A stretch of 64,000 nt of DNA from a virus (lineage: Duplodnaviria > Caudoviricetes). The position numbers and the translations under genes are program-made. Within the stretch, counting starts at the first letter, position 1; each line of letters begins with the position of its first letter. Below, one piece after another: positions 21,630 to 41,266 of this stretch. The stretch is taken from the IMG/VR virus record IMGVR_UViG_3300027833_000011. One strand, 5' to 3'. The notes beneath the pieces were generated by a model. That model saw only the letters and a program-made list of their open reading frames with translations. It made no database searches and had not been told where the DNA came from.

Positions 21630-22538
21630 ATGGCAACAGGTAATTACGGAATAAAGAGACCAGCAGATGTTACACCTTCCGATGTGGAGGTTTTTTTACA
21701 TTATGCTTCAGATAGAGATTCAAATACGGCGCCAGTGTTTAAAAAATTAAATGCTAGCGATATTTTGTCACCTGTTTTCCATAACGATGTGACAGGTGGT
21801 ACTCAAGAAACAGAGATGTTAGGAGGGTTGTATAACTTAACACTTGAAAGTGGAGAATTTTCAGATTTAGGGGTGTATAACTTATACATCAGACCAAAAG
21901 AAATAAGAACAAACATTACAGATTGTGGTGTGTTATTAACATTACCAAACGTTAAGGGATTGATATTTGACGTATCAAGTATACCATCAGAAGATAGAGG
22001 TAAATTTGTAAATAACGGATTGGTTGGTTATAGAATTGAATACTTAGACGATAGTGGTAAAAAGATTAGTAACTTCTACAGAGTTATAACGAGTAGTTTT
22101 TTCTGTGAACCGATTGTTGCTAATTTAACAAATACAAATCAAAAATCTTTAAGATATAGATATACGAGTAATCCTACGAGTTTAGTGTATTGTACTGTAA
22201 CTCCGAGCACTGCTCCAACAAATAATCCAAATGAGATTCCATTTATTGGCGAACCAAACCAAAATGTTATCTTAACCAATACTTACTTTAACCCTGTACA
22301 CATGGAGGTTGAGTTAGTAGAACACGACGAACAAACATTAGCATACGCATTGTATGGTAATCAAACTAAGTCAATTGAAGACGGAATATACACGATTTAC
22401 GATAAAGAGAATAATATATACAGACAGTATAACTTATTTGAAATACGTGATGAAATTAATAATAAATTATATGAGGTCCGTGAAGATAGAATTGATGATA
22501 TCGACACGTCCAAAGGTTTTGATAATATAGCGAATTAA
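21630..22538 (+). CDS. Conserved virion structural protein
   Basis: Clean ORF with an upstream TATTTAT; coupled to the 2108-aa gene. Confidence 0.55.
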   Translation: MATGNYGIKRPADVTPSDVEVFLHYASDRDSNTAPVFKKLNASDILSPVFHNDVTGGTQETEMLGGLYNLTLESGEFSDLGVYNLYIRPKEIRTNITDCGVLLTLPNVKGLIFDVSSIPSEDRGKFVNNGLVGYRIEYLDDSGKKISNFYRVITSSFFCEPIVANLTNTNQKSLRYRYTSNPTSLVYCTVTPSTAPTNNPNEIPFIGEPNQNVILTNTYFNPVHMEVELVEHDEQTLAYALYGNQTKSIEDGIYTIYDKENNIYRQYNLFEIRDEINNKLYEVREDRIDDIDTSKGFDNIAN

Positions 22539-25500
22539 TGGCGAACATTAGATTTCCTTCTAACGGTAGTGGTACATTCTCAGATGGTCTTGTAGGGGGT
22601 CAGAATACTGAGGGTAATGATTTCACGCAGAAAAACTTTTCTGAAGAAGGGACTCCTGTTGTTAGAGATACTAAAAGTTTTACAACTTCAGATTTTTCTA
22701 AACCAATTTCTTTAGAGGACTTAAACAGTGAGGAATCTATTAAAGAGGTTAGTAAATTATTTGACCAATCATTAAAAATAAAGTTTAACACTGAAAAGGG
22801 GTCCAAAGATTTGTTTGGGTCTGCTTTCTTAAGAGCTAAGGTTGCGGTTGAGAATATTGCAAACACATTTCCAGCGTCTTTAAGAGTGTTTAAAACAACA
22901 ACCGACGCTCAGACCGTTGATACGGCATATGACGTTGTAAACAATCTACAATTTAATACCACGACCTTTAAAATACCATTAAGAGCGATTAGAAATCCAT
23001 TAGGGATTGAATATAGTAATATTGGTTTAAAAGTTTTCGATGGACAATACGATACTGATAGAAATTTTGCTAAAGAATTTACAAAATATGTTTTATTGTT
23101 TTCGGGTGTTGAATATAAAATTAAAAAGGTTTTATTACCAGAAAACAGATATAATGGTGAACTATCAATTACTGTTCACGGAAAACCATTTACAGGTCCA
23201 ACACAGGAAGAATTCTACATTAAGTTAAACGACATCTTATTTGAGAAGAAGTTTGAATTAATGGACGATTTTGAACAGTTATTATTGGATAGAGAGAACG
23301 TTCCATTATATGAGGCTAAGTTTAAAGTTCCTAAAGAAACGAGTGACGGTAAATTGTACTTTGGTGATGAAAAAATAAAATGGGAATTGTCTGATGACTT
23401 TAACATTGTGGTTGAAGGGAATAAATTTGAAAGATATTTAGAGAAATTATTTGAAACGTGTGAAGTTATTGATAACTACAAATCTAATTTAATTGCTCGT
23501 TTTTTATCAACGGCTTCTTTACAGGAGTTTGACACTGAAGGTCAAAAAGTTAAGAAAATTTTCCAACTATACGGTAGATTTTTTGATGATGTAAAAAAAT
23601 TCATAGACAATATTGCGTATATGAACAATGTTACGTACGATAAGATTAATAACGTACCTGATTTACTATTAAAGAATTTAGCGGGGTTATTAGGGTTAGA
23701 TGTTATAACCTCAATTACGGACCGTAATATCGAAGAGTACTTATATAAGAAAAAAGACAGTCAGTTTGACGGGTTAACAAAAGGAAAAACACCATTTGAG
23801 ACTGACATTGAAATATATAGAAGAATAATATTAAATTCGGCGTACCTCTTCAAATCTAAAGGTACAAGAAAACCCCTTAGATTCTTATTGAGTTTTATTG
23901 GGGCACCTGAATCATTCGTTGAGATAAACGAATACGTTTATAAGGTTATAAATCGAATTGATTACGATAAGTTTTCTGAAAAATTAGATAACGTTATTGA
24001 TGGTGAGTGGTTTGAATCTGACGTAGACTTCAAAACGATAAAAGTTTGGAGTGAAATTAAAGAGGAATGGTTAGATAAGTCGGATTTCCAAAAGAAATAT
24101 CCAAATGTTGAAATAGATGTGTTAGGGTATTTAGAGAATGGTCAACTACCTGACGGTGAGAACCATGGTGACGCTTATATTTTAGATAAAGAACTGATTA
24201 GTGTTGAAGTACAGAAATCGGGTGGGGTATACAATGTTGATGACTATCCAATAGAGAGAGTTGGTACTTCAGACAATTCAATACCTAAAACTCCTACGAT
24301 AACTAACGACTACTTCTTCCAAAAGGGTGCTGGTTGGTTTGAAAGGACAGATTCACATAAGTCTGTTTCGGTATTGGATGAAGAAAGGTCTGATTTGACA
24401 ACTTCTCCAAAAACAATTAAGACAAAATTTGAAGATTTCACTTATGGTGAAAAATTCTATGATAGATATAAAAATTTCCCAAACTTTGATGATGGATGGG
24501 AGTTAAAGGCTGACATCGACAATAAGAAGTCAGATTCAGATACTAACAAGTTTATATTAAACAGAAAGAACGTTGATATATTCCTTAACCCTGGACGAGC
24601 GGTGTTATTTGATTTTGTGAGAACATATCAAAAACACTCATTATCGTATTCAGGTGTGTTATTAAACAATTTAACATTCGCTCAATTCTCTGAATATGGT
24701 TTTTGGAATGGAGTTGAAGTGGGTAAAGGTAAATACGGAAAGAAATATTGGGATTTAATTGAACTTTTTAAAGAATATTACGAAAGTGGTTTAGGTAAGG
24801 CGTATGATTATGACTTAACGTATGCGTACTTAAACAAAATTAGTACGTATTGGATACGTTTGGTTGAACAGTTTATACCGGCAACTACTTTATGGTTTAC
24901 AGGTGAAAAAGTTGAGAATCATAATCTACATAGACCAAAGTTTAATTGGGAAGAACCATGTAGGAACGATGTTATGTCATTAGACTTATCGTTGGCGAAG
25001 ACATTATATGAGACATTAATTGACTCATTAAAAAAATATAAGAATATACCTGACTGTTACGAAAGATTATATCGTTATGGTAATTGGTATTTACAGGTAA
25101 AAATAAATGATAAAATATACCAAATAGGGGGTAAAGATTGGACACATTTCTTCACCTCTACAGAGTCCGATAATATGGGTTCATGTAATTTGGATAATGC
25201 GCAACCAGGAAATCCTAATACTTGTCCACAATACGATAATCCGATTTATATGTTATGTGATTTTGAAACATACATAACGTGTTACCCTGATGAATGTAAA
25301 GATTTTGTAACAACTATAGTTCAGATGTTGTCACAAATTTCCAAAGACATATATAGAGACGAAATTGCTGATAAAGTTAGTGATTGTGATTTTTTATGTG
25401 ATGGCGATGATGGATTGACGTATGTTGCTGACACAGTATTTGGTTCTACTATAAAGACAACTAGTTCAGAGGTTGAAGGGTTAAGTGCTTTTGAGATTGA

Positions 25501-28500
25501 AGGATTTAAAGATGGTGAGTTTTGTTATGATTGTCATAACGAGATAAAGTTAATAACCAATAGTTACTGTGGAGAATGTTTCGATATAGATTCGTTAGAA
25601 ATAGGGATGAAAGTTATTATTAATGAGGGTGAAGGACAAGATGACTGTAAAGACAGATGTTTTGTGTTGGAGAACATTCCGTTTAGTATTGACCAAAGTC
25701 AGTTCGGAGGTGTTCACTATGACGTAAATTACCCTGACCATCATATAGATAGTTTAGACCCGAGGGGTACTGTATTTTTAACTGAAAAGTTTGAAGTTGT
25801 TAAATGTGTGGACTACGATAAAGTATATCATGGGACGTATCAGTATGTCGGTGGGTTAGACACAATAGACAGGTTTCCAGTGTATAAACACATAACTGAA
25901 GACATTTATCTTTCGTGTTATCCTGACGCACCTGAATCGGTTAATGGAGACTTTATGTTTACTGAAGGACCTAAAGGGTCGTCCACTCAAATATATGGTA
26001 AATTATCGGATAAAAACTTATTAGATTTCACAAACGTATTCACACATTCGTTAGAGTGGGAAATTGACGACTGTATAACAGTTGATGATTTAGAAGAAGA
26101 CCAAAATGTTATCAGACACCGTTATGCTACGGGTGATAGTATTGGTATTTGTGATAGAGTTAATGATGATGGTTTTGATTATGTAAAAATATGGTTACAT
26201 GGTGGGACTTTTGAGGCTCAAGACGGTACCACATTACCTTATGATATGTTCTTTGATTGTAAAGAAAGTTTAGTTGAAGGTGAGACTATATGGTATGACG
26301 AAGCGGGAGATGTTTTTATTGTTAAGATTAAATCAGGTGAGAATAGGTTGATACATGCTTATGACCAATCGGGTGCTCCAATACACATATATTTAAAAGA
26401 CAGAAACACCGTGTTGGTGGGTCTTGATTTTGAAACGGATTTAGAAACTATCGACGAATATGGTGGTTACGGTCAGTATGGTGGTTACGGTCAGTATGGT
26501 GGTTACGGAGGATACGGTGACTATACATCTTACGGTGGTTACGGTCAGTATGGTGGTTACGGAGGATATGGAGGATATTTCTGTTATGGAAATGAATATC
26601 TGTTTTATTCAAATATAAACCCTTACTGTGTTGGTAGACTTGATTATGAGATAAGACCTGAGTGTCAAGGTTATTTAACCGATACTGAATTTTATAGGGT
26701 TAAAGGAGAAACAATACCATACGAAATAACTATTGATGAGGTAATTGTCGGTGAAAATGTTGAAACAGTTAGGGTTCAGGATATTAATGTCGGTGATTTA
26801 ATTATCGCTGCGAGTCCTAATTACGGAGAAATGGATTTCTGTGATTACTCGGAGTTTCAATATGGAAATGAAGGTATTGTGTGTAATTACACAAAAAACA
26901 TTAAAATGGTTCCTGTGATGAGTACATCATGTGGAAGAATATACAAATACATTAATATTAATGAAGGTAGGGTTAAAGTAGAATTCCATCATAATATTTT
27001 GGTGTTAGAGGATTTAAACAAAACGAATTCGAACGACTTATTAACAACGTGTTATACTGAAGCACCTACAAAACCAATTGGAACGATTTATAACTTAGAC
27101 GGGACACCATCACAGGTGTTTTACGATAATGAATATCAGATAATCTCTAAACCGGCTAATGAGATTGGTATTGGTGACTATATAATTACCACGAATGAAT
27201 GTGGGGTTATTGAAGTGAAGAGTTTGGTTTATGACGATTACTGTGATGAGAATTTATTTAACGACAAGTATCAGATTAAGTTTGATGAAGATATGTTCGC
27301 TTGGTATAGACCTAAAGATGGGTACGATACGATATACATCAACGACAAATGTGTTCCTTATTGTGAGTTAATATGTTGTGATGAAATAGAAATGTGTATT
27401 GACGACATAACTATTAGTGGTGTTTGTATTGACGATATAAGTTACGTTATTGGTGATATACCAACAACAACGACAACGACTACAACCGATTTACAGTGTC
27501 TGTGTATAACATTTACACATATGTCAGGTGGTGGACCGGCATTTACTGGTTATTATGACGATTGCGATGGTATTCAAAGAGAGATAATGGTTTTAGACGC
27601 ACAAACTAAAAGAGTTTGTGGTAGTGGGTTAAACATATCAACCAATCATGATAAGTTGTTTTACACGATTGGTGAAGAGTGTGACACTGATAGAAAGTGT
27701 CCAACTGTTGATGAAACAACAACTACTAGTACGACAAAAGAGCCGACAACGACTACTAGTACAACAAAAGAACCAACAACGACTACTAGTACGACAAAAG
27801 AACCAACAACGACTACTAGTACTACAGAAGAACCAACAACAACTACTAGTACGACAAAAGAGCCGACAACGACTACTTCAACGACTGAAGAGCCAACAAC
27901 AACTACTTCTACTACAAAAGAACCGACAACAACTACTAGTACGACAAAAGAGCCAACAACAACTACTTCTACAACAAAAGAGCCGACAACGACTACTTCA
28001 ACGACTGAAGAGCCAACAACGACTACTTCTACGACTGAAGAGCCAACAACGACTACTAGTACAACAAAAGAGCCGACAACAACTACTAGTACAACAAAAG
28101 AACCAACAACGACTACTTCTACGACTGAGGGTGATTTAATGTGTGTGTGTATAGAGTTTACACATATTTCCTCGGGTGGGTCGTCCTACATTGGTTATTA
28201 TGACGATTGTGATGGTATACCTAGAGAGGTGGTTGTAAGACCGTTAGATAGTGAAAAAGTTTGTGGTAGTGGATTGAATATATCAACCAACAATGGTAAG
28301 TTAACATATACGATTGGTGAAGAATGTGATGAAAATAGAAAATGTCCAACTGTTGATGAAACAACAACGACGAGTTTTAGAGAACCTGATGACCCAACAA
28401 CGACTACTTCTACTACAGAAGAGCCGACAACGACTACCTCAACCACTATGGGTGGAGATGGTTCGGGTCCTATTACAACGACAACAACTAGTGGAAATAA

Positions 28501-28864
28501 TGAAACAACTTATTGTGTTAATTTTGATTGGTTAGGTTCACAAGTAATCCCTCAATCGTCAGGAAAGGCATATGCTGATAGTACAACAGTTAGTCAAATA
28601 ACTGAATTCTATTTATATGATGTTGGTTGTGGAAATGGTGATTTTGATGCGTTAGCAAACGTATTAACTACGGGTTATGGTCTTGCGGTTAGTAGGGCTG
28701 GTTCGACGGCTAATTTTACTCTTAATTCATTAACAGAAAATAGTTATAATAATTATTGGACTTTAGGTGTTACGTATAACTCAGGAACAGTAACACAGGC
28801 ACCTAATGGATTACCATGTCACCAACCGAATAGTTTCTGTTTTACACAACCGATACTGAGTTAA
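22538..28864 (+). CDS. Giant modular baseplate/fibre protein (2108 aa) with YG repeat, Hint-like region, Cys-rich modules and mucin-like stalk
   Basis: FKSKGTR..LRFLL.FIG..EINEY baseplate-type motif in the N-terminal part; repeats read directly from the translation. Confidence 0.7.
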   Translation: MANIRFPSNGSGTFSDGLVGGQNTEGNDFTQKNFSEEGTPVVRDTKSFTTSDFSKPISLEDLNSEESIKEVSKLFDQSLKIKFNTEKGSKDLFGSAFLRAKVAVENIANTFPASLRVFKTTTDAQTVDTAYDVVNNLQFNTTTFKIPLRAIRNPLGIEYSNIGLKVFDGQYDTDRNFAKEFTKYVLLFSGVEYKIKKVLLPENRYNGELSITVHGKPFTGPTQEEFYIKLNDILFEKKFELMDDFEQLLLDRENVPLYEAKFKVPKETSDGKLYFGDEKIKWELSDDFNIVVEGNKFERYLEKLFETCEVIDNYKSNLIARFLSTASLQEFDTEGQKVKKIFQLYGRFFDDVKKFIDNIAYMNNVTYDKINNVPDLLLKNLAGLLGLDVITSITDRNIEEYLYKKKDSQFDGLTKGKTPFETDIEIYRRIILNSAYLFKSKGTRKPLRFLLSFIGAPESFVEINEYVYKVINRIDYDKFSEKLDNVIDGEWFESDVDFKTIKVWSEIKEEWLDKSDFQKKYPNVEIDVLGYLENGQLPDGENHGDAYILDKELISVEVQKSGGVYNVDDYPIERVGTSDNSIPKTPTITNDYFFQKGAGWFERTDSHKSVSVLDEERSDLTTSPKTIKTKFEDFTYGEKFYDRYKNFPNFDDGWELKADIDNKKSDSDTNKFILNRKNVDIFLNPGRAVLFDFVRTYQKHSLSYSGVLLNNLTFAQFSEYGFWNGVEVGKGKYGKKYWDLIELFKEYYESGLGKAYDYDLTYAYLNKISTYWIRLVEQFIPATTLWFTGEKVENHNLHRPKFNWEEPCRNDVMSLDLSLAKTLYETLIDSLKKYKNIPDCYERLYRYGNWYLQVKINDKIYQIGGKDWTHFFTSTESDNMGSCNLDNAQPGNPNTCPQYDNPIYMLCDFETYITCYPDECKDFVTTIVQMLSQISKDIYRDEIADKVSDCDFLCDGDDGLTYVADTVFGSTIKTTSSEVEGLSAFEIEGFKDGEFCYDCHNEIKLITNSYCGECFDIDSLEIGMKVIINEGEGQDDCKDRCFVLENIPFSIDQSQFGGVHYDVNYPDHHIDSLDPRGTVFLTEKFEVVKCVDYDKVYHGTYQYVGGLDTIDRFPVYKHITEDIYLSCYPDAPESVNGDFMFTEGPKGSSTQIYGKLSDKNLLDFTNVFTHSLEWEIDDCITVDDLEEDQNVIRHRYATGDSIGICDRVNDDGFDYVKIWLHGGTFEAQDGTTLPYDMFFDCKESLVEGETIWYDEAGDVFIVKIKSGENRLIHAYDQSGAPIHIYLKDRNTVLVGLDFETDLETIDEYGGYGQYGGYGQYGGYGGYGDYTSYGGYGQYGGYGGYGGYFCYGNEYLFYSNINPYCVGRLDYEIRPECQGYLTDTEFYRVKGETIPYEITIDEVIVGENVETVRVQDINVGDLIIAASPNYGEMDFCDYSEFQYGNEGIVCNYTKNIKMVPVMSTSCGRIYKYININEGRVKVEFHHNILVLEDLNKTNSNDLLTTCYTEAPTKPIGTIYNLDGTPSQVFYDNEYQIISKPANEIGIGDYIITTNECGVIEVKSLVYDDYCDENLFNDKYQIKFDEDMFAWYRPKDGYDTIYINDKCVPYCELICCDEIEMCIDDITISGVCIDDISYVIGDIPTTTTTTTTDLQCLCITFTHMSGGGPAFTGYYDDCDGIQREIMVLDAQTKRVCGSGLNISTNHDKLFYTIGEECDTDRKCPTVDETTTTSTTKEPTTTTSTTKEPTTTTSTTKEPTTTTSTTEEPTTTTSTTKEPTTTTSTTEEPTTTTSTTKEPTTTTSTTKEPTTTTSTTKEPTTTTSTTEEPTTTTSTTEEPTTTTSTTKEPTTTTSTTKEPTTTTSTTEGDLMCVCIEFTHISSGGSSYIGYYDDCDGIPREVVVRPLDSEKVCGSGLNISTNNGKLTYTIGEECDENRKCPTVDETTTTSFREPDDPTTTTSTTEEPTTTTSTTMGGDGSGPITTTTTSGNNETTYCVNFDWLGSQVIPQSSGKAYADSTTVSQITEFYLYDVGCGNGDFDALANVLTTGYGLAVSRAGSTANFTLNSLTENSYNNYWTLGVTYNSGTVTQAPNGLPCHQPNSFCFTQPILS
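26459..26578 (+). repeat. Tyr-Gly (YGG/YGQ) coding repeat
   Basis: YGGYGQYGGYGQYGGYGGYGDYTSYGGYGQYGGYGGYGGY. Confidence 0.95.
27716..28132 (+). repeat. 30-nt coding tandem repeat TTTTSTT[K/E]EP, 13 full units plus 1 partial
   Basis: Counted from the translation; synonymous codons vary between units. Confidence 0.97.
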
Positions 28865-28929
28865 ACAAAAAAAATGGGATAATTAGTAAAAGATTAAAAA
28901 AAATAAATGTATTTATATAATAAAAGAAA

Positions 28930-29844
28930 ATGGGAAATATTAATAACGATAGTAATAGGGTAGCAACGGACACACCAGATACGACGACAACCACTACTAC
29001 AGGTGGGGTTTCGGTTACATTTAGTAGTCTTAGTAATGGGCCGTGTAATTTAACGTTTACGCCCGATTGTGGTGGAACACCAGCACAAAACCAAAATCAA
29101 AGATTAGCGACGGATACACCTGATGCGACTACCACGACCACACAACCTGGTGAGGTCACAATACCAGGTATTAATTTCCCTTATACTTTTTACCCTTTAG
29201 AACATGGAGTTGATGATATTTTTGGGACTTATACGTTTAATTGTGGTGGTTGTGAATATATAAGGAACATAGAGAGAGTGTGTAACGATAATGATATATC
29301 ATATACAGTATTAGGTTCTTCTATTACCACAACAACAACTGAAGATGTAACAACTACGACCACTACTGAAGACGTAACTACGACCACTACGACAGAGGAC
29401 GTAACAACGACCACTACGACAGAGGACGTAACAACGACAACTACGACAGAGGATGTAACAACGACAACGACAAGTGAAATACCGACTACTCGTTTCTATA
29501 TTTCAACTGGAAAACAAGTTCCTGGAGTGTTTGATGAAGGAACAAATACGGGTACCGGTTTCTGTGACAATACATATTTATTATCTGGGGCTCTTTGGGT
29601 GGAAGGTAATTTAACAATAATTTCACAGTTACTTACTAAAACAGTATACACCAATAGTGATATGGATACTTTCATACCTGTCGGATGGTATTATGTAAAT
29701 GAACAACCAGGTTATCCTAATGGTACATATGCTGGCGCAGTACCAGGTTTGTCACACAAAATTATAAGGGTAGATGAAGACGGTATTGTTGGAACTATTC
29801 AGAATCATGACTGTGGAGAACAAGGAGGAGGACAAGAACTTTAA
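28930..29844 (+). CDS. Mucin-like Thr-rich protein A (putative virion decoration)
   Basis: Five EDVT5-6 units; N-terminal module shared with the next gene; upstream TATTTAT. Confidence 0.75.
   Translation: MGNINNDSNRVATDTPDTTTTTTTGGVSVTFSSLSNGPCNLTFTPDCGGTPAQNQNQRLATDTPDATTTTTQPGEVTIPGINFPYTFYPLEHGVDDIFGTYTFNCGGCEYIRNIERVCNDNDISYTVLGSSITTTTTEDVTTTTTTEDVTTTTTTEDVTTTTTTEDVTTTTTTEDVTTTTTSEIPTTRFYISTGKQVPGVFDEGTNTGTGFCDNTYLLSGALWVEGNLTIISQLLTKTVYTNSDMDTFIPVGWYYVNEQPGYPNGTYAGAVPGLSHKIIRVDEDGIVGTIQNHDCGEQGGGQEL
29341..29475 (+). repeat. 27-nt coding repeat EDVTTTTTT x5
   Basis: Read directly from sequence. Confidence 0.95.
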
Positions 29845-32146: not shown

Positions 32147-33178
32147 ATGCGAAGACGTAAAAGTAAAATATTTGATATATACATAACCACAGGTGCTGGT
32201 AATACAGTCGGTGGTGGTTCTGATGTGTGGGTAAATAATTGGTTAAAATTAGTTCCTAAACACTTAGAAATTAAACCAATCTTACTTATTGATAATTATA
32301 GGTTTCAAGGGTTTGAAGAAGATTCCATTCCTATTGAACACATTTTCTATAACGAAAGACCTGATGAATCTAAAAGATTACTACAGGAATGTCGACACAT
32401 TCACTTTTTACATAATCATTACACTAAAAGACCTCACCTATGGAAGTATAGGTTTAAGTTTAAAAGTATTGCGGTTCACGCATACGCCAGAGAGATAGTT
32501 GATTCTTATAAGGAGCTAGGGTTCTCAAGAGATTCAGTCCCTTTTTTATGGAATGTCGAATGGCAAGACGAATTAATCCGTGAGTGTGAAACTAAGTATT
32601 GGGTTGGTTCACAAAAGGGTTTGGTTAATGATATTTTTAACGACTGTATAACAATCCCAAATTATTATGAGTTTATATGGAATAAGGAATATTTTCATAG
32701 TAATGTGGTTGGGTTTGCTGCAAGGGCAGAAACAAGAAAGGCTATTCATTTTTTAGAGAATGTTAGGTCTAATGCTTTTACTTCAAGTAATGGGGTTAAG
32801 ATATGGGAGAAAAATACTAAAATGAAGTTCAACAATACTAAAATCATTGAGTATAATCCAATCTTAACGGATGAATACTACACGAGTAGTCTATTCGGTA
32901 TATTCCATGGTGCTTACGTTAAAGAACCATTTGGGTATTCGATTCTCCAAGCCGTTGATGCTGGTAAATTACCTATAATAGCTAAAGGGTGGTGTCCTGA
33001 GTTTAACTATCCGTATCGAGCGTCGAGTAAAGAAGAGTTTGAAGACATGGTTAAGATAATCCAAAACACAAATAAAGAAACAAGAGAAAACATCTTTAAC
33101 TCGGCTAAATCGTTTTTAAAGAAATTTGATAATAAAGACCATTGGGTTGAAAGAATGAAAACAATATATAATGAATAG
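32147..33178 (+). CDS. GT-B fold glycosyltransferase, GT4-like
   Basis: GGG...W loop, FAAR...RK and KEPFGYSILQA (Ex7E motif with Q). Confidence 0.75.
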   Translation: MRRRKSKIFDIYITTGAGNTVGGGSDVWVNNWLKLVPKHLEIKPILLIDNYRFQGFEEDSIPIEHIFYNERPDESKRLLQECRHIHFLHNHYTKRPHLWKYRFKFKSIAVHAYAREIVDSYKELGFSRDSVPFLWNVEWQDELIRECETKYWVGSQKGLVNDIFNDCITIPNYYEFIWNKEYFHSNVVGFAARAETRKAIHFLENVRSNAFTSSNGVKIWEKNTKMKFNNTKIIEYNPILTDEYYTSSLFGIFHGAYVKEPFGYSILQAVDAGKLPIIAKGWCPEFNYPYRASSKEEFEDMVKIIQNTNKETRENIFNSAKSFLKKFDNKDHWVERMKTIYNE

Positions 33179-34124
33179 AAAATTAATAGTTTCACGAATG
33201 TGGACAAAACGAGGTATACAACAATACTTCTCATTACTCCAACTATCTAAAGAATTTTGGGACTTTGAAATAGAGGCTCATATTTTAATAGATGATTGGA
33301 CACATGAGGACGATTGGACTTTTGAAATTGAAAAACTTAATAATCCACATAGAGAAGGGTTTCCAATGACTGTGGAGTTTTACACCAAAGAAGAGTTAAA
33401 ACAATGGTATCATAGTAATAATATTATAGACAAGAGTGTGTTTGATAACATGAAAGGGTTTTTACACATTTATCATCTTCTATTGTATTTTTATTTATAT
33501 ATTGAAAAAGGTATTGATTACTTAGTGTCTTATGATGATGATATTGTGTTTAATAAAAAAGTTAGTCCTGAGTTAAATGAAATCGATGGTTTAATCGCTA
33601 ATAAAACACCATTTGTTATTGACGAAGAGTACTTTCCTATGTCCGACAAAAGTATGTTTGTTGGGTTATCTAATTATTTTAACCGTGATTTAACACCCGA
33701 TTATTATAGAAATAACATTAGGGGTGTTGGGGCTAATGCTGGTTTTATGGGTATAGAAACCTCATCAATATTTAGTTCTTTTAAAGACAATTTTATGGGT
33801 TTGATATCCTTATTTGACTTCAAATCACCAAATTTAAAATCGATTGATGAACCTTACCATTATACCGATAAGGTTTTATTTGATACTCAAGAACAAAGTT
33901 TTATGAGTATTATGTTACACTGTTTCGCGACAAAAGAATTATTTAGGTTAGGTGGGGCATTAGGGTATTTCTTTGACACCCCAATACAAGAAGCAGTAAA
34001 TAAGTCTAAGTTAATACATTTTACAGGAGACAGAAAATACGACCCACAATTTCCAAAGATTATTGTAGATTTTCTAAAGAAACATGGTCATAACAATATC
34101 ACACCAGATTGGTTTTATTATTAA
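33171..34124 (+). CDS. GT-A fold glycosyltransferase, GT8-like
   Basis: YDDDI (DxD), NAGFM, EQS and HFTG..K motifs. Confidence 0.65.
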   Translation: MNRKLIVSRMWTKRGIQQYFSLLQLSKEFWDFEIEAHILIDDWTHEDDWTFEIEKLNNPHREGFPMTVEFYTKEELKQWYHSNNIIDKSVFDNMKGFLHIYHLLLYFYLYIEKGIDYLVSYDDDIVFNKKVSPELNEIDGLIANKTPFVIDEEYFPMSDKSMFVGLSNYFNRDLTPDYYRNNIRGVGANAGFMGIETSSIFSSFKDNFMGLISLFDFKSPNLKSIDEPYHYTDKVLFDTQEQSFMSIMLHCFATKELFRLGGALGYFFDTPIQEAVNKSKLIHFTGDRKYDPQFPKIIVDFLKKHGHNNITPDWFYY

Positions 34125-34130: not shown

Positions 34131-35240
34131 ATGTTGGAACCGTTATACAATAAAGAAATATTAGAAGAAGGTATTATTGAAGCTTTAAGACACATTGATG
34201 CTTTTGATGATATTGAAAAGGCGAAAGAATGTCTAAGAACGGCACTATCACCAAATGAAAAATGGGCGATTAATTTACTAAACTCGAGTGTTAGTGATAA
34301 TATGAAATTCCACACAATGAATGGGTATAATTTACCGTTTTTTGAGAATGATAGTAATATACCAAAAAGAGCTAAAAACGCTAGATTATGTGTCGTATAT
34401 CAAGTATGGGGTAATCATAACTATTTAAAGTTTTTATACTTATCAATTTTATCACAATTGGTGTATACGGATATTTTAGATTTTGATGTTAAAATATTTT
34501 TAGGTAAAGGATTTGTTAACGATGTAGGTGCATCATTAATCGACCGATTATTACCTGAAGGGTCTATTATACCTGTTAATGATGGGTTATCTTTAAAATA
34601 TGGTTTAACTTCCCATCCGCATTTACAGAACTATGATGTGGTTTCGGTTGTTGATACAGACGCATTTTGGTTTCACCCTAAAGGTGTGAAAACTAATGTA
34701 TACCAACAAATGTTAGATTTGTATGACTCAGGTTTTGATAGTCTTATTATGGCGCCAGACCCTGACTTAGCAAGTTCAGTATTTTGGCAAAGAAGAGATA
34801 CGTTAAACACCAACATACCTGCTGAACATTATAAAAGTTATTTCTACAGAAATGCGAATACGGATGAAAAAAAACTTACTGAATTTGTGGACCATGATAA
34901 GAATTGGTTTCTATCGTGTCTATTTGTATATGGTAAAAATCATTTTAAAGAACCAGGATATGGTAAATACGCCTTGACCTGTTTATACGATGAATTACTT
35001 TGTGATGAAACAGTTTGGATGATGTGGGGTATGGGTCACGATTACGAAATTGAGAATATGGATAATACAGGATTTTTACGATGGGTTGGTGCGAATGATT
35101 TCGATAGGTATTGGAGTAATGAGAAAAACATAGAAGATGTTTTATCTTATATTCATCCTGTACAGGGGGACCATTGTTATAATATGAATCTAATTAAGTT
35201 ATATGATAAAATAGTAGAAGATTATAAATTAAGTAGATAA
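34131..35240 (+). CDS. Putative GT-A fold glycosyltransferase
   Basis: VVSVVDTDAF DxD after a beta strand, late CDE and IH motifs; lies in the GT cluster. Confidence 0.5.
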   Translation: MLEPLYNKEILEEGIIEALRHIDAFDDIEKAKECLRTALSPNEKWAINLLNSSVSDNMKFHTMNGYNLPFFENDSNIPKRAKNARLCVVYQVWGNHNYLKFLYLSILSQLVYTDILDFDVKIFLGKGFVNDVGASLIDRLLPEGSIIPVNDGLSLKYGLTSHPHLQNYDVVSVVDTDAFWFHPKGVKTNVYQQMLDLYDSGFDSLIMAPDPDLASSVFWQRRDTLNTNIPAEHYKSYFYRNANTDEKKLTEFVDHDKNWFLSCLFVYGKNHFKEPGYGKYALTCLYDELLCDETVWMMWGMGHDYEIENMDNTGFLRWVGANDFDRYWSNEKNIEDVLSYIHPVQGDHCYNMNLIKLYDKIVEDYKLSR

Positions 35241-36163
35241 TGAAAAGACCCGATTATAGTGTGATGTATGTTTTACACGTCATGCCAGAAGAAATACAAG
35301 ACGTTGGTAGAATAATAAAAGACTTTGAAATATCGACAAAAGAAAACTCAAATGTGGGTGTTACTTTATATATTGATTTGAATTTTTCAGATGTCTATTA
35401 TGATTGGTCAAATTCTAAAATGACTAAAGAAACTTTTTATCATTTATTTCAAAACTTCTTAATACATTCTCGAAAAAATTTAAATATAATACACAATGTA
35501 AGAGATACGGGGCATTGGGGGGTTAATTCAACTAGAAGAAACGTGATTAACGAATACAAAGATACGTTTGATTATATCGGTTTTATTGATTGTGACATAT
35601 TTTTTGACCCAGCGGCTATTCAGTATGTGTATAAAACATTAGAAAAAGAACCGGGGGAATTTATCGTATTTTCTGGTTTATTACCTAAGATGTGGAACGA
35701 ACACTTTGATGAACTCACACATAAAAAATTTAAGAATGTGACTGATAGGTCATTTCCTTTTAAGGTTAATCCTTTGAGTGTTTATGGGTTCCACCAAACA
35801 CAGAGAAATGAGGTGGGATATACTTCTGATATTATGGTTGGTGGTGGATGGTTTAACGTTTTTTCTACAACGATTTTCGATTACGTAACCATACCGACAG
35901 AATTAGGGGTTTATGGTATTGATGACCATTGGATTCAAGAATGTTGTCGTTTCCTTAATAAATCAGGATGGGACATTAAACAATGTTATAATAATAAGTT
36001 TTTAGTACTAGAGAACCACGGTCGTAAATTTAACCTACCTGAACCTTTTATTATTAAAAAAATGGTTAACGGTGGTAAATTTGAGTACGAAAAAAACGCA
36101 AAACAAAATTACGAAAGTTTATTCAACGAATATAAGAAAAGTATAATCAGTAAGTATTTCTAA
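35240..36163 (+). CDS. GT2/GT7-like glycosyltransferase
   Basis: RRN..., FIDCDIFF, GGG and YGIDD motifs. Confidence 0.65.
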   Translation: MKRPDYSVMYVLHVMPEEIQDVGRIIKDFEISTKENSNVGVTLYIDLNFSDVYYDWSNSKMTKETFYHLFQNFLIHSRKNLNIIHNVRDTGHWGVNSTRRNVINEYKDTFDYIGFIDCDIFFDPAAIQYVYKTLEKEPGEFIVFSGLLPKMWNEHFDELTHKKFKNVTDRSFPFKVNPLSVYGFHQTQRNEVGYTSDIMVGGGWFNVFSTTIFDYVTIPTELGVYGIDDHWIQECCRFLNKSGWDIKQCYNNKFLVLENHGRKFNLPEPFIIKKMVNGGKFEYEKNAKQNYESLFNEYKKSIISKYF

Positions 36164-36165: not shown

Positions 36166-37668
36166 ATGAAGTTATTTTTTACTTTTTACAGTAAAGAAAG
36201 TATTCCTAAATTACACCATTTTTTCAATCACTATAGGAACTTAGGTGTTACCAATTTTTACGCTATATATCACACATATGGAGAACATAGTAAAGATGTT
36301 TTAGATTATGTAATGAAAAATGCTATGGTTGTTAAGATATGGGATGGAGTATTTAATGAGCATAATAAAATTAAACATATAAATGATGCGAGATTAAAAT
36401 TCTCAAGTTATGGAGAATGGTCGTTTACTGTTGATTGTGATGAATTTATCGATATAAGTCTAAACGACTTAAACAAAGTGATTAATAGTGATGCTAACTA
36501 TGTTAAGTTTAGTTTAATCGATAGGGTATCTAAACCATCACTTAAAGAAGTCACTATTGAAGAGGATATAGAAATGACGTTTCCACATTATTCTTTTATT
36601 ACGTATCGTTTATTAGAGGGGACGACATCTAAAGTGCCTCTATCTGTTCGTGAAGTTATTATTGGTTTAGGTTATCATGATGTCATTGGAGAACAAGAGC
36701 AAGTGGTTAAGTTAATAAAACACCCTTTAAATGGGTATGTTAATCACTTTAAATGGGATAGTGATGTTATCTATACTATACACGATAGGGTTACTAATAG
36801 GTTAATAGATGACGGAAGTGCTGATGATTATATAGAAGAATGTGAAGTTGCGTTGTCTTTAGATTATGATAATGTGATTACCTACGACAAACCTTTAGGT
36901 ATGAAGTTATTGTTTATAGTTTGGTCTCTTCAGGATTATAATATGTTAAAACAATTCTTCATACATTATAGAACTTTAGGGGTTACCAAATTTTATTGTA
37001 TTTTTCACACTTACGGTATGGAAGATAATTTTATTTATGATTTCGTTAAAGAAAACGCTGAGATTGTACACCATTGGGATGAGAAATATACTACGGAGTG
37101 GGAATGTAAACTCAAAAATAAATATAAAAGGGAAATATGTGATGATGAGAACGAATGGGTATGGTGTGTTGACGCTGACGAATTTGTTGATGTCTCACAA
37201 GATTTTGTGAGGGAAGTAATACGTAGTGACTCAAATTACGTTAATGGGTGGATGGTAGATAGGTTTTCTGAAGAGGGGTTAATAGTTCCATTGGATGATA
37301 ATATGTTTAAACAGTTCCCTATTAGAACTTACTATACTCGTTTTAAATTAAACGGTTCTGGTTCTAAAATCCCATTAACTCGTTCTTATGTTCTTATTGG
37401 TGTGGGACATCATGTGGTACTAAACGAATTGTACGATTATCAATTAAATGACGATAGAGTCTTAATTCCTTATAATGGTGATGAGGAAACTTGGATTGAA
37501 GTTGCTCATATCAAATGGCATTATCAATTGTTGGAGGAAATATATAATAAATTCACTAAAACAATGAATTTATGTCAATATTCGGCAAGAGAAATGGGAG
37601 TATTTGTCTTAGATTATTGTTATAAGAAAAAATCAATAACTGAGATTATTAAAGATGTGAGGATATGA
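36166..37668 (+). CDS. Tandem-duplicated GT2-like (Glyco_tranf_2_4-type) protein
   Basis: Two homologous halves: HYRNLGV...TVDCDEF...HFKW and HYRTLGV...CVDADEF...HIKW. Confidence 0.75.
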   Translation: MKLFFTFYSKESIPKLHHFFNHYRNLGVTNFYAIYHTYGEHSKDVLDYVMKNAMVVKIWDGVFNEHNKIKHINDARLKFSSYGEWSFTVDCDEFIDISLNDLNKVINSDANYVKFSLIDRVSKPSLKEVTIEEDIEMTFPHYSFITYRLLEGTTSKVPLSVREVIIGLGYHDVIGEQEQVVKLIKHPLNGYVNHFKWDSDVIYTIHDRVTNRLIDDGSADDYIEECEVALSLDYDNVITYDKPLGMKLLFIVWSLQDYNMLKQFFIHYRTLGVTKFYCIFHTYGMEDNFIYDFVKENAEIVHHWDEKYTTEWECKLKNKYKREICDDENEWVWCVDADEFVDVSQDFVREVIRSDSNYVNGWMVDRFSEEGLIVPLDDNMFKQFPIRTYYTRFKLNGSGSKIPLTRSYVLIGVGHHVVLNELYDYQLNDDRVLIPYNGDEETWIEVAHIKWHYQLLEEIYNKFTKTMNLCQYSAREMGVFVLDYCYKKKSITEIIKDVRI

Positions 37669-39116
37669 TAGGTATACATTCGGTCTTTAGTAATGAGAAT
37701 AGAGGGTTTATTTATAATGTAAACACAGAAATTAGTACTGTTGAGTTATATACGTGGGTTTATTCAATATTAACGTGGAAAAGAGATGGTCATCCATTAT
37801 ATCTCTATTGTGATGATAAAATTAATGACTTTGTTATCAAATACGGTTTTTCTCATTTATATGATGAGGTAAGAGTTAGAAATTATAACGACGACATACA
37901 CGAATGTTTTTGGTCGTATAATAAAATACGTGTGATTGAAGAGTTTGGGGAACCAGTATGTTTGTTCGATGTGGACACTTTTTTTAGGAATACCGAATTT
38001 ACTAAGTTACAATATGATATGATAACATATCATTATGAGTTATGGGATTTGGAGTTAAAAAATAAAATGTTTAACAGTAAAGATAGTTTAAAAAACTTAA
38101 GTTTCTACCAAACGGTAGACGATAGTGTTGAGGTTGTTAATGGTAGTTTACTAATTTTTAATAGTTATGATTTAAAAACAGAATTTTTACGTAACGCTAA
38201 AGAGGTTGTTGATACTATAAAAACAATCGATTATGAAAGTCAATTTGAGTATGATTCGTATACCATTTTTATGGAACAGGTTAATTTGGGTTATTTAAAT
38301 AAGAAATATCACTGTGGTAAAGTTTCTAAAAGAAATGAGTGGGGAGATTATAGATTTAACAGGAACGAACCATTTGTTCATTTAGGTCATAATAAAGAAC
38401 GATTGGAGTATGGTAATCCACAAACAAAACAAAGATATGTTCAGGTAATTAAGGAGAAGATTATTGAGTTAGGATATCCTGAGTTTGAAAAGTTATTTAC
38501 CTTAACGACGTTCGAAGGTGATAAGACCCAAAACTCTTTAACACCTCAAAGGGTTAAACCAACCGCTAGAAATATGGGTGATAAGATAAGTTCTGAATTG
38601 TTCACTAAATGGTATGGTGATAATGCGGAGTTATTGAAAGATAGTCGATTTGACATTGCGATATGGGGTTCTATATTGGGTAATGACATTGACTTGATTA
38701 TATCAACGTCTAAAGGGGTTAATGTAAGTGATAAAGACTTAGAAGATTTTATGTTATCAATACATAGGTCAGGTGATTATCTCAGTATTACTGTTGAGGT
38801 ATTATATACCAATAATATTGACTATTTTAGAGAATTTAGAATGGAAAATTCTCAAAAAGTAAAAGAAGACATTCTTATTGGGTTTGTTTCTGAAGCGGAT
38901 TATGAGTCAAACGGTGAGTTAAGAACGGTGGGTAACTTAAAGTTTTATGAAGGACCATTTAACGATGCTTACTATAAATCAACAAATAAACATGATGAAG
39001 TTCTATTTATAGATTCAGTAAAAGATATAAAAAACAACGATGGTTATACACATTTTTCATCTGAGGTTTATAATACCATATATGAAAGGTTTGGAATTTT
39101 CAGTATGTTAGGCTGA
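37665..39116 (+). CDS. GT-A-like (DUF6734-like) domain fused to a nucleotidyltransferase-like domain
   Basis: N-terminal LYCD...FWSYNK...CLFDVD; C-terminal WGSILGNDIDLII. Confidence 0.55.
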   Translation: MIGIHSVFSNENRGFIYNVNTEISTVELYTWVYSILTWKRDGHPLYLYCDDKINDFVIKYGFSHLYDEVRVRNYNDDIHECFWSYNKIRVIEEFGEPVCLFDVDTFFRNTEFTKLQYDMITYHYELWDLELKNKMFNSKDSLKNLSFYQTVDDSVEVVNGSLLIFNSYDLKTEFLRNAKEVVDTIKTIDYESQFEYDSYTIFMEQVNLGYLNKKYHCGKVSKRNEWGDYRFNRNEPFVHLGHNKERLEYGNPQTKQRYVQVIKEKIIELGYPEFEKLFTLTTFEGDKTQNSLTPQRVKPTARNMGDKISSELFTKWYGDNAELLKDSRFDIAIWGSILGNDIDLIISTSKGVNVSDKDLEDFMLSIHRSGDYLSITVEVLYTNNIDYFREFRMENSQKVKEDILIGFVSEADYESNGELRTVGNLKFYEGPFNDAYYKSTNKHDEVLFIDSVKDIKNNDGYTHFSSEVYNTIYERFGIFSMLG

Positions 39117-39154: not shown

Positions 39155-41266
39155 ATGGCATATCTAAAGAAAAATATAGAAACATTAATTGATATTAAAA
39201 TTACAGACAAAGGTAGGGAGTTAATTTCTACAGGTAAGTTCTGTAACATTGAGTATTTTCAGGTTGGTGATTCTGAATTTGACTATAAAAACGAAACTAT
39301 CTTTAAGAGAGATGGGAAGAAAGACACGCAGATTGTGTTTAGAGCTAAAGATAAGGATTCGGATGTTAAATATCCAATACCTGTCGGTAGTGAAAGTCCT
39401 GACGACCCATTAAGTTGTAATACTTACGGTAGGGTTTACCCAAATCATCAAGAAGAGGTTGTAAGTAAGAAAGTAGAGTTTTTAGGTGTGACACAAAATC
39501 AAAATATAAAGACACCGTTAGGTATATGTGTGCCATTGATGAACTTTGATGGGACAGATACTTTGGTGACTAACAAGTTAATATCTTGTGAGTATATTTT
39601 AATCAAATTTCCCCAAGACCCGTCAAACGTTTTAGATACTGATGGTCCTTGTTTATGGTATAAAGTCGTTTCGTTTATTGATGAGAATACGATTCAATTA
39701 GACAGACCTTTACCTAACTATTCTTTTGTTACTGACCTTAGTAAAGAGGCGACATTATTTGAATACGCAAAAAGAGAGACTACGGAATATTTAGATTTCA
39801 ATGTTGCGTGGACTGAGGAGTTTGCTGGTTTTGATGTTAACTTACCAAGAACATTTGCTGAAGGGTCTAAATATCTATCGGCTAAAGAGATGTTCGGTTA
39901 TACGTCATACGAGCATGGAGACAATTATTATTCATGTAACCCTGAACCAACAACGACCACTACAACGACAATATGTCCTCCTGAGTTTTTATCATTGGAC
40001 CTAACAAGAGAACCTACAGTACAATTATTTAGTAATGTTGAAGTAAGTGGAGAGAGTTGGGATTATTGTTCTTCTTATGTAGATTCTTACGGTAAAGAGG
40101 TTTATGTGTATCCTGACGAACAAAAATTTATTGGTATAATACATTATACTAAATGGGAAGACTATTATGGAACGGGTGAATGGTGGAAAGAATTTGACGG
40201 TGAATTCGAATTAAACCTACCAACGTTAATGTACCATAGAGATGAAGATAATAAAATGGGACATAAGTTTAAAATGGGTTCAATCAATAACTACGTTAAG
40301 TCGTTAGTGAATGATGAAATGGATTCTGAAGGTGAAGTTTATTTCGATTTAATTGATACAACAAGTAATCAAAATATTGTTGGTAAGATATTCCCACACA
40401 AACAAGCGATTGTTATCGACGACGAAGAGATATTAATGGCATTATCAATGAAGTCTAATAGAAATTGGACATTACCGGCACCAAAGGCGGTTAGAATATC
40501 GTCAGATGCTGATTGTATCGATTCTCCTGATGATGTTATGTTACCTAAAGACTTAACAAAACAAGTTTTTATTTCTTATATGTTCTACAATAAGAATAAC
40601 AAAATGTATTCGGCACCATCGGCTCAATACGTTAGGGTTGACCCTAGTGGTACTGATGATTTTGATGTTGCGGTTTCATTTAAAGATGGTTTTAATTTCT
40701 TAAGAGATAAGATTATCACGGACAACAATCCAGGGTTTCAAGCGACTAATTTCTATATTTTAGTACAACAGGTTGATACTAAAGATAAACCATTACCTGA
40801 CGAATGGAGGTATATTGAGTATACTGATAGTTTAAATGGGTTTACTGGTGGTAACATATTAAGTTCTCACTTAACCGGAACTAAATTCATAGTCAACTCT
40901 GAACTATATAATAACGCAAATGCGTTCAACTACAGACAGTTAATTGGTTATCCTAATCAGAATGAAAGAAATAATCTAATCTTTGGTGATGAGTTTATGT
41001 TAATGGGGGATGTTACCCTAAACAAACAACACAGTGTTTATGTTATGAACTACATAGTAGACCTACCAAGTAATAAGTTTATAAGGTCACAAAACCCGAC
41101 ATGGGACCAAGACACTGACAGTAAAAAACAGGACTTATATATTACCGAAGTTGCTTTATACAACGACGATAAGGATATGGTTGCAATTGGTAAGGTGTCA
41201 AAACCACACAAAAGAAAGGTTGACCCTGCTAGTAATCAGGTTATATCGGTTAAATTAGATTTTTAA
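39155..41266 (+). CDS. Virion structural protein (baseplate/tail-associated) with a short Thr stalk
   Basis: N-terminal KITDKGRE...FQVGDSE and C-terminal YITEVALYND..DMVAIGK motifs typical of large myovirus virion proteins; contains PTTTTTTTICP. Confidence 0.65.
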   Translation: MAYLKKNIETLIDIKITDKGRELISTGKFCNIEYFQVGDSEFDYKNETIFKRDGKKDTQIVFRAKDKDSDVKYPIPVGSESPDDPLSCNTYGRVYPNHQEEVVSKKVEFLGVTQNQNIKTPLGICVPLMNFDGTDTLVTNKLISCEYILIKFPQDPSNVLDTDGPCLWYKVVSFIDENTIQLDRPLPNYSFVTDLSKEATLFEYAKRETTEYLDFNVAWTEEFAGFDVNLPRTFAEGSKYLSAKEMFGYTSYEHGDNYYSCNPEPTTTTTTTICPPEFLSLDLTREPTVQLFSNVEVSGESWDYCSSYVDSYGKEVYVYPDEQKFIGIIHYTKWEDYYGTGEWWKEFDGEFELNLPTLMYHRDEDNKMGHKFKMGSINNYVKSLVNDEMDSEGEVYFDLIDTTSNQNIVGKIFPHKQAIVIDDEEILMALSMKSNRNWTLPAPKAVRISSDADCIDSPDDVMLPKDLTKQVFISYMFYNKNNKMYSAPSAQYVRVDPSGTDDFDVAVSFKDGFNFLRDKIITDNNPGFQATNFYILVQQVDTKDKPLPDEWRYIEYTDSLNGFTGGNILSSHLTGTKFIVNSELYNNANAFNYRQLIGYPNQNERNNLIFGDEFMLMGDVTLNKQHSVYVMNYIVDLPSNKFIRSQNPTWDQDTDSKKQDLYITEVALYNDDKDMVAIGKVSKPHKRKVDPASNQVISVKLDF

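Follow-up and report, generated by a model that had tools for sequence, protein, structure and literature searches.

The locus described here lies in a 64,000-nt stretch of DNA from a tailed phage (Caudoviricetes; IMG/VR record IMGVR_UViG_3300027833_000011), which is termed the window below. At positions 22538–41266, seven consecutive genes assigned or proposed as glycosyltransferases (GTs) are bracketed by four genes that encode runs of threonine (Thr). Genes are named by their start positions, and the first gene of the block, 31162, is called GT1 (Table 1). The original prediction for this DNA, made from its letters, had proposed that the phage uses these enzymes to build a mucin-type O-glycan on its own virion. 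Thr runs were sought by a six-frame scan of the window, and the expected numbers were calculated from a background Thr content of 5.7% over 19,900 codons. The scan returned 12 runs of at least six Thr against 0.0007 expected and 36 runs of at least four Thr against 0.2 expected. All of them fell in 22538, 28930, 29865 and 39155, as the original prediction had stated for the runs of six or more (12 of 12), and runs of at least five Thr were likewise confined to these four plus-strand open reading frames (ORFs). Gene 22538 contained a T8 run (27464–27487) and a T5 run (28475), 28930 contained a T7, four T6 and three T5 runs, 29865 contained five T6 runs, and 39155 contained a T7 run (39950–39970). 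The codons ACA, ACT, ACG and ACC were used in the runs in the same mix as in ordinary Thr positions, indicating that the runs were kept at the protein level and were not products of single-codon slippage.

The tracts included Pro/Thr/Ser tandem repeats of the acceptor type, namely 14 copies of TTTTSTT[K/E]EP in 22538 and 9-aa Thr repeats in 28930 and 29865. In the 2108-aa protein encoded by 22538, the N-terminal ~800–1650 aa were conserved across the lineage and the C-terminal ~500 aa were variable. The variable part held the T8 run, the 14-copy array and two Cys-rich modules of ~76 aa; the array, which was the largest Thr tract and had escaped the run criterion of the original prediction, was located between these modules. 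Its copy number varied among close relatives, and three such arrays were present in relative L004 (loci are referred to by L numbers). In the 28930 protein, a conserved N-terminal module was followed by a stalk in which a 9-aa unit (EDVTTTTTT) was repeated 5–6 times, and then by a variable C-terminal domain. Its paralogue 29865 had the same N-terminal module, a stalk of five 9-aa Thr repeats and a different, Cys-rich C-terminal domain. The 39155 protein was conserved across the lineage, with 26–30% identity in distant relatives, and its T7 run was located in a Cys/Pro-flanked loop. In relatives this run was kept in some cases, replaced by T6 or (TP)n in others and absent in L089; the earlier listing of 39155 among the Thr-stalk substrates therefore holds for the presence of the run but not for its conservation in that relative. 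Between close relatives, the Thr-repeat genes were 53–77% identical and differed in repeat number, while the GT genes were 92–98% identical. Such fast divergence of the Thr-repeat genes is expected of exposed proteins under diversifying pressure. According to their position and the promoter motif described below, the four Thr-run genes are probably structural. Some minor features of this region were also recorded. A Gly/Tyr-rich tandem repeat (YGGYGQ-type, period 18 nt, ~5.8 copies) lay at 26459–26562, within the 2108-aa protein and upstream of its Thr tracts, and was also found in relatives L004 and L089. Metatranscriptome and metagenome contigs of relatives broke exactly at Thr tracts (window 27464–27484, 29360 and 29857), and some of them ran on after 28930 into a hairpin followed by a T-run; these features point to repeat-length variation and to a terminator after 28930 in some strains.

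The enzyme encoded directly downstream of 29865 was characterized by profile and structure comparisons. GT1 had one strong family match, phrog_4417 (“unknown function”; E 4.1e-68), with residues 1–296 aligned to positions 1–290 of the 293-position profile. An AlphaFold2 model built from an alignment of 27 diverse homologues reached a mean predicted local distance difference test score (pLDDT) of 96.5, and D98-x-D100 and H251 were invariant across these 27 sequences. Foldseek comparison with the PDB matched the model to the GT-A enzymes WbbM, glycogenin and UGGT. In the reviewed part of the AlphaFold Protein Structure Database, the best match was the Arabidopsis peptidyl-serine alpha-galactosyltransferase SGT1 (GT96; E 3.1e-10). 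The hydroxyproline O-arabinosyltransferases (HPATs) HPAT1-3, RDN and PLENTY (GT95) were matched over residues 1–306 with template modelling (TM) scores of 0.63–0.66, and GT8 enzymes came next. Moreover, the cluster library of the same database contained three unnamed direct relatives (TM 0.84–0.88), followed by many HPAT-like domains of algae and protists. The modelled structure thus identifies 31162 as a glycosyltransferase with a GT-A fold nearest to GT96 and GT95, in agreement with the GT96/95-like assignment proposed earlier. At the sequence level, the Pfam HPAT family PF23452 scored 14.6 bits on 31162 against a cut-off of 23.9, which places the protein outside GT95/GT96 by sequence, and only one of the 27 homologues matched PF23452 at E ≤ 0.1. 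A Pfam scan of the 27 homologues returned no GT family, and phrog_4417 has no corresponding Pfam family. The GT8 family PF01501 (Glyco_transf_8) was unmatched in 31162, 33171 and 37665 despite the structural similarity to GT8 enzymes. The maximum 19-residue hydropathy of 31162 was 0.76, so that no transmembrane segment and no type II anchor were found.

Table 1. Positions of the features discussed in the text (window coordinates)
Feature	Position	Strand	Basis or remark
T4 gp6-like baseplate wedge	10983-12818		upstream of 22538
2108-aa protein, candidate acceptor	22538..28864	+	end of baseplate module
Tandem array, 13.7 copies of 30 nt	27715..28125	+	encodes TTTTSTT[K/E]EP (mucin-like Pro/Thr/Ser domain)
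TATTTAT motif	28910..28916	+	20 nt before ATG of 28930
304-aa fibre-like protein, candidate acceptor	28930..29844	+	24% Thr
422-aa paralogue of 28930, candidate acceptor	29865..31133	+	22% Thr; directly upstream of GT1
GT1, soluble GT-A glycosyltransferase	31162..32094	+	phrog_4417; proposed poly-Thr O-glycosyltransferase
343-aa candidate GT-B (GT4-like)	32147..33178	+	protein-language-model (Atlas) features: GT-B / Glycos_transf_1
317-aa candidate GT8-like GT-A	33171..34124	+	protein-language-model (Atlas) features alone
369-aa candidate metal-dependent GT-A	34131..35240	+	invariant D175-x-D177, weak GT8/GT6 Atlas features
307-aa candidate GT2-like enzyme	35240..36163	+	invariant D117-x-D119, sub-threshold Pfam GT2
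500-aa protein, two Glyco_tranf_2_4 (GT2 clan) domains	36166..37668	+	PF13704
483-aa two-domain protein	37665..39116	+	N-terminal GT-A fold; C-terminal 180 aa with WGSxxGxDIDL motif
TATTTAT motif	39133-39139		before 39155
703-aa protein, possible acceptor	39155..41266	+	own TATTTAT motif
OGFOD2-like 2-oxoglutarate-Fe(II) oxygenase	42935-43624		PF25238, E 4.4e-9; outside block; OGFOD2-like, not TET/JBP
GT25-family glycosyltransferase	53124-53864		PF01755, E 3.8e-9; outside seven-gene block

The neighbourhood of GT1 homologues was compared across isolated phages, IMG/VR contigs and bacterial genomes. A GT1 homologue was present in 77 isolated-phage records, with hosts that included Lactobacillus, Enterococcus, Staphylococcus, Lactococcus, Clostridium and Chryseobacterium, among others; no Mycobacterium phage was among these 77 records. 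In the isolated phages examined, the gene immediately upstream of the homologue bore a Thr tract in three of three cases. Gp48 of Enterococcus phage phiFL2B ended in ~20 Thr/Ser residues (the GT gene itself is misannotated there as “major tail protein”), orf13 of Lactococcus phage 1706 (“major structural protein”) ended in T10, and the upstream protein of Chryseobacterium phage MA9V-3 contained an internal T6-S-T6-SS-T6 tract. At least 325 GT1 relatives were found in IMG/VR. Among the 80 loci analysed, 68 had a same-strand ORF with a run of at least six Thr no more than 300 nt from the homologue. Such runs were found in 30% of the stop-to-stop segments adjacent to the homologue, in 3.1% of those at 0.3–3 kb and in 0.9% of those beyond 3 kb. 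When the loci were clustered at 60% identity, adjacency was retained in 13 of 18 clusters, and a run was located within 2.3 kb in 16 of 18. At least 134 loci with a GT1 homologue were found in bacterial genomes, and 80 were examined as an independent set; the upstream gene ended in poly-Thr at 35 of them, a pattern that was seen in Bacilli prophages.

The proteins that carried the tracts were then classified by a PHROGs scan of ten Thr-run neighbours taken from the IMG/VR loci. Five of the ten belonged to families of known function, namely a major tail protein (phrog_238), two major head proteins (phrog_840 and phrog_10) and two tail tube proteins (phrog_6686), and poly-Thr was located at the extreme C-terminus in all five. 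The remaining five were large multi-domain proteins without a named family, and their Thr linkers reached 28 residues. In small siphophages, the GT1 homologues were flanked by the major tail or head gene on one side and by the tail chaperones on the other. Other neighbours were tiny ORFs of 45–71 aa ending in poly-Thr. Hence, the carriers of the Thr tracts were mutually unrelated, which indicates that the tract, and not a gene cassette, travels with the enzyme. In other marine phages, at L017:9834-11192 (IMG/VR 3300025543_000032) and likewise at L012–L020, a 64% identical GT1 was flanked by ORFs of 45 and 71 aa, with the C-terminal ends ...CCVTTTTTTATP and ...CCNPTTTTTTTISGTTTTTTTSI. The genes next to these tiny ORFs were of lysis type or encoded small, very Lys-rich proteins; the ORFs may be minimal glyco-tagged peptides.

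The distribution within the lineage was evaluated at 80 loci anchored on a conserved RuvC-like gene (41322) downstream of 39155. Runs of at least six Thr were present at seven of the eight loci with GT1 and at one of the 72 loci without it, in line with a co-occurrence of Thr-repeat genes and the GT block in related jumbo phages, which the original prediction had named as a check. Many of the 72 loci lacking GT1 still kept homologues of 39155 and of the giant 2108-aa protein. In the distant relatives (L022-26, L029-31, L086 and L094-105), the position between the giant protein and the homologue of 39155 was likewise occupied by GT1 and by Thr or Thr/Pro tracts. The full seven-gene block was found only in relatives at ~56–99% identity (L001-5, L002 and L089), always next to Thr-repeat genes, and relatives at 56–79% identity had all seven genes in the same order. 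In one sublineage (L096:2745-9999), the gene products near GT1, among them the 39155 homologue, contained long (Thr-Pro)n and Pro/Thr/Ser linkers plus T6 runs, so that the acceptor motif may extend beyond pure poly-Thr. In the L089 contig (European Nucleotide Archive, 254 kb), the genes for the giant protein and the Thr-repeat protein were separated by an additional gene of 251 aa (L089:1714-2469), whose product contained a lipoprotein-like signal (…LILTSCEHD) together with a HEFLHALGLRH motif of the metzincin type.

The expression context of the region was assessed from upstream motifs and environmental transcripts. The motif TATTTAT occurred 20–24 nt before the starts of the baseplate-module genes 10522, 12899, 17948 and 21630, and again before 28930 and 39155. 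It preceded the start codon of none of the seven GT genes (0 of 7). As a motif recognized in the sequence, TATTTAT is a possible late promoter of a transcription unit spanning 28930–39116. Contigs from four marine metatranscriptome libraries (90–99% identity) mapped to 31.2–35.6 kb, which contains GT genes, and to 39155; they give a weak hint of expression, since DNA carry-over is possible.

On this evidence, it is rather probable that GT1 starts the O-glycosylation of poly-Thr tracts on exposed virion proteins of the phage. GT1 would be a cytoplasmic, metal-dependent GT-A enzyme that transfers the first sugar onto the hydroxyls of contiguous Thr (or Thr/Ser) tracts before or during virion assembly. 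At this locus, sugar would be added to the repeat stalks of 28930 and 29865 and to the Pro/Thr/Ser array of 22538, and perhaps also to the 39155 loop. Host periplasmic glycosylation would not be expected to reach phage proteins that are assembled in the cytoplasm. No hydrophobic segment was found in any of the seven block enzymes, which are therefore expected to act in the cytoplasm, where virions assemble. The six soluble downstream enzymes, probably made from the same late transcript, would most likely extend or decorate the first sugar. The product may be a stiff, protease-resistant and hydrophilic glycan brush, which would hold small Cys-rich or variable distal domains off the particle. 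Stiffening, shielding from proteases or antibodies, and adhesion are candidate benefits of such a coat. The initiating peptidyl-GT of the original prediction thus passed the co-occurrence comparison, both next to the enzyme and within the lineage, whereas the structural role of the candidate acceptor proteins is presumed from their position and the promoter motif.

Several observations weigh against this mechanism. The lineage correlation (Fisher p = 2e-8 for co-occurrence of GT1 and Thr runs) came from a statistic that ignores shared ancestry. Two viral clusters (L031; L040 + L047) had no T6 run at all, and ~38 chromosomal homologues in Pedobacter, Chitinophaga, Mucilaginibacter, Sphingobacterium and Elizabethkingia (L174-L252) had no Thr-rich gene within 3 kb. 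An association with Thr tracts is thus not universal in the GT1 family, and the chromosomal branch in Sphingobacteriia and Chitinophagia may have another acceptor or context. The distant relatives kept GT1 and Thr tracts without the other six genes. Conversely, homologues of 32147 (36% identity) and 35240 (23%) were present in the 484-kb phage LR756508, where GT1 was absent and 45 kb contained no Thr run; a link to Thr tracts is thus not intrinsic to these two accessory enzymes. Four of the seven putative GTs lacked fold-level proof. As for the virion location, 28930, 29865 and 39155 had no PHROG or Pfam match. A full-text literature search, with most subscription journals outside its coverage, returned no biochemistry or proteomics for the GT1 family, and nothing that tied this family, GT95/GT96 or poly-Thr tails to phage glycosylation.

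The six genes downstream of GT1 were examined individually. All seven genes of the block were consecutive on the plus strand, as had been claimed, with overlaps or gaps of at most 52 nt; GT identity was established for three of them (31162, 36166 and the N-terminal domain of 37665), and the other four are leads. Gene 36166 matched PF13704 in two stretches (47.8 bits against a cut-off of 27.5, E 2.2e-12), which places it in the GT2 clan; it showed an internal duplication and is, by its domain content, a glycosyltransferase. The model of 37665 had a moderate pLDDT of 69. Its residues 1–280 adopted a GT-A fold, with glycogenin as the first match (Z 11.9), followed by LARGE1, GlcNAc-1-phosphotransferase and LgtC, and are thus assigned to GT-A on the model. 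The C-terminal half is putatively nucleotidyltransferase-like from its GS...DxD motif, so that of the GT plus nucleotidyltransferase reading given earlier, the first half is secure at the fold level and the second is a motif call. Ten homologues of 37665 were found, all within this lineage. For 34131, D175-x-D177 was invariant in 59 homologues, some of which were fused to methyltransferases; a Pfam scan of these 59 returned no GT family, just the fused methyltransferase and DUF6734 domains. Gene 35240 scored 16.2 bits against PF00535, below the cut-off of 23.3 (E 0.01), and thus did not qualify for GT2 by this profile. Gene 32147 had no Pfam or PDB sequence match. Word-index homology searches with 37665 (single sequence and profile) and 35240 returned lineage-restricted relatives alone, none with Pfam domains, and an NCBIfam scan matched nothing. 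PDB sequence and profile matches for 31162, 32147, 35240 and 37665 were spurious or below threshold (transcription activator-like effector repeats, geminin) and were rejected. A homology of the 34131, 35240 and 37665 families to the GT1 family is not claimed; profile–profile comparison placed DxD in register with a probability of at most 3%. In LR756508, the 32147 and 35240 homologues (L172, LR756508.1:128858-132943) were ~3 kb apart and ~22 kb after a baseplate wedge gene.

The original prediction had all six extend the glycan begun by GT1. This part did not stand up well: adjacency is the argument for it, and it is set against the distant relatives that lack the six genes and the phage that has two of them without GT1. 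An alternative is that GT1 glycosylates the Thr tracts while 32147–39116 remodel a host envelope polysaccharide (O-antigen or capsule) during infection, for example to block superinfection or to change adsorption, a role that has been suggested for the GT clusters of jumbo cyanophages. Variable multi-GT clusters of jumbo phages have been read as makers of diversified outer polysaccharides (Iyer et al., 2021; PMC7824862), and this alternative would also fit the restriction of the six genes to the closest relatives, GT1 and Thr tracts being more widely distributed, as well as the content of LR756508. On the other side, no flippase, polymerase, undecaprenyl (lipid-carrier) transferase or membrane segment was found among the seven genes, and the block contains no sugar-nucleotide synthesis genes. 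Furthermore, the six genes follow GT1 head to tail inside the structural/late region with no promoter-like motif of their own, and the seven-gene order was kept at 56–79% identity alongside the Thr-repeat genes. A role in envelope remodelling was hence judged unlikely, and action of the six enzymes on the virion glycan is preferred.

Slightly less likely still is a reading in which the Thr tracts stay unmodified and serve as flexible or extended linkers, GT1 acts elsewhere (for example on another residue of the neighbouring protein, on itself or on a small molecule), and the two travel together only as parts of a mobile structural-gene cassette. Poly-Thr and Thr/Pro linkers are widespread without a dedicated enzyme, about half of the chromosomal homologues had no Thr neighbours, and the self-glucosylating glycogenin was among the structural matches of GT1. 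Against this, the tract carriers were as different as head, tail tube, major tail and fibre-like proteins and ORFs of 45–71 aa; Thr runs were nearly absent from lineage members without GT1 that have the same backbone genes; and the nearest characterized relatives of GT1 act on repetitive hydroxy-amino-acid peptides. Glycosylation of phage DNA (hypermodified bases) by the block, as in T-even and other GT-rich phages and with a coincidental proximity of the Thr genes, is very improbable: T4-like replication and baseplate genes are present, a DNA alpha-glucosyltransferase family cluster stood at rank 14 among the Atlas features near 32147, and multi-GT DNA glycan pathways are described in Pyle (2024, as cited in PMC12619734), but no base hydroxymethylase or DNA-modification gene was found among the part of the window ORFs that was scanned, the siphophage homologues of GT1 are located among head and tail genes, and the presence–absence correlation between Thr runs and GT1 would be left unexplained.

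A broader interpretation of GT1-initiated Thr glycosylation, which we hold as possible and somewhat short of an even chance, is that GT1 (phrog_4417) and poly-Thr form a portable two-part “glyco-tag” that has grown here into a seven-enzyme pathway making a true mucin analogue on baseplate fibres. A Thr run could be grafted onto any exposed virion protein (capsid, tail tube or fibre), and one cytoplasmic enzyme would then coat it with sugar; the mucin analogue would consist of tandem Pro/Thr/Ser stalks separating Cys-rich knobs. The glyco-tag would be the bacterial-virus counterpart of eukaryotic mucins and plant extensins, built on an extensin-type enzyme fold. In animal mucins (GT27), tandem Pro/Thr/Ser repeats likewise separate small Cys-rich domains, as the 14 copies of TTTTSTT[K/E]EP do here. 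Neither a GT27 nor a ricin-lectin domain was found in the ten window proteins scanned with Pfam, in which the sole weak match was Lectin_C_term (E 0.032, under the cut-off). The term “mucin-type” used earlier is consequently retained as an analogy on the acceptor side alone, and the resemblance is best described as convergent.

Other known systems were also compared with the locus. The plant enzymes SGT1 (GT96) and HPAT/RDN (GT95) were the best whole-length structural matches of GT1 (E 3e-10 to 1e-8, TM 0.59–0.66). They have the GT-A fold and initiate glycosylation on hydroxy-amino acids in dense repeats (extensin), which yields a stiff glycosylated rod. Their sequence identity to GT1 was 13–15%; moreover, they are membrane-anchored Golgi proteins whose acceptor is Ser or hydroxyproline, whereas GT1 has no hydrophobic segment and its presumed acceptor is Thr. 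The nearest analogue in layout was the serine-rich-repeat adhesin system of Gram-positive bacteria (GtfA/GtfB, Gtf3, GlyD and GlyE), in which a long Ser/Thr-repeat gene lies beside several cytoplasmic GTs that assemble an O-glycan step by step while the protein is still in the cytoplasm. GlyE, a GT8 enzyme, was among the structural matches of 37665. In that system, however, a GT-B pair (GtfA/B) initiates, while a GT-A of another family is proposed to do so here; the window contains no accessory Sec system, and its substrates are phage proteins. Giant viruses (Mimivirus fibrils; the chlorovirus PBCV-1 capsid, A64R) also use virus-encoded multi-enzyme glycosylation of surface structures, and the PBCV-1 capsid GT (2p6w) was among the GT-A matches of 37665 (Z 9.0). 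These are eukaryotic viruses with other enzymes and other acceptors (atypical N-linked glycans and fibril proteins).

To our knowledge, glycosylation of their own virions by phages has been demonstrated experimentally in mycobacteriophages alone, where it alters antibody recognition. The earlier remark that no characterized phage pathway with this layout was known is accordingly overstated, although the enzymes of this precedent are unrelated and its acceptors are short and C-terminal. Virion O-glycosylation in Che8, Corndog and Myrna (Freeman et al., 2023, Cell Host Microbe, as cited in PMC12619734) is described there as the action of phage-encoded soluble GTs on their own virion proteins, with glycans at the C-termini of capsid and tail-tube subunits; siphophages with the GT1 family have poly-Thr exactly at these positions. 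Che8 gp108 is a GT2 fused to a methyltransferase, gp109 is a GT2 and gp110 is a GT25, and none resembled GT1 by BLASTP (E 1.6–8.5 only). Moreover, the capsid and tail proteins of Che8 have short ...TGS or ...DGS ends in place of poly-Thr, whereas the candidate acceptors in the window are long repeat stalks inside proteins of fibre or baseplate type, and three enzymes there compare with seven in the block. The locus is best filed under phage self-glycosylation as a known kind, in which the enzyme family and the proposed acceptor type are new and the enzyme set is unusually large. It is predicted to represent a second, unrelated and far more widespread phage self-glycosylation system.

The carriers span phages of Enterococcus, Staphylococcus, Lactococcus, Lactobacillus, Clostridium and Bacteroidota, with a Thr run beside the enzyme gene as a readable signature, and the existence of cultured carriers makes the mechanism directly testable. 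If it is correct, a large phage family of “unknown function” (phrog_4417) would gain a function, and the odd poly-Thr tails of many capsid and tail proteins would be accounted for. The mechanism would also be relevant to phage therapy, through immunogenicity and stability, and to dairy phages, and it would provide a compact enzyme-and-tag pair for O-glycoprotein production in bacteria. Furthermore, it would mean that mucin- or extensin-like glycoprotein brushes arose in bacterial viruses.

The source of the window is a marine jumbo myophage, as judged from its gene content, the relatives of its baseplate wedge protein, the size of related contigs and its occurrence in marine metagenomes. The window was AT-rich (31–37% GC), with nearly all genes on one strand, and matches included a DnaB-type helicase, ribonucleotide reductase, primase, SbcCD, ClpP and an endolysin. 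The wedge protein had its closest isolated relatives (~28% identity) in Flavobacterium phage immuto, Microcystis phage Mel-JY01 and a 484-kb uncultured phage. Related contigs reached 250–330 kb, and the same DNA was present in marine, seawater and coral-reef metagenomes from at least 10 studies. The 12.4-kb block gave zero megablast matches in 50,697 phage records. Outside the block, the window encodes an OGFOD2-like oxygenase and a GT25-family glycosyltransferase (Table 1). Gp110 of the mycobacteriophage virion-glycosylation set of Che8 likewise belongs to GT25 (E 1.2e-7).

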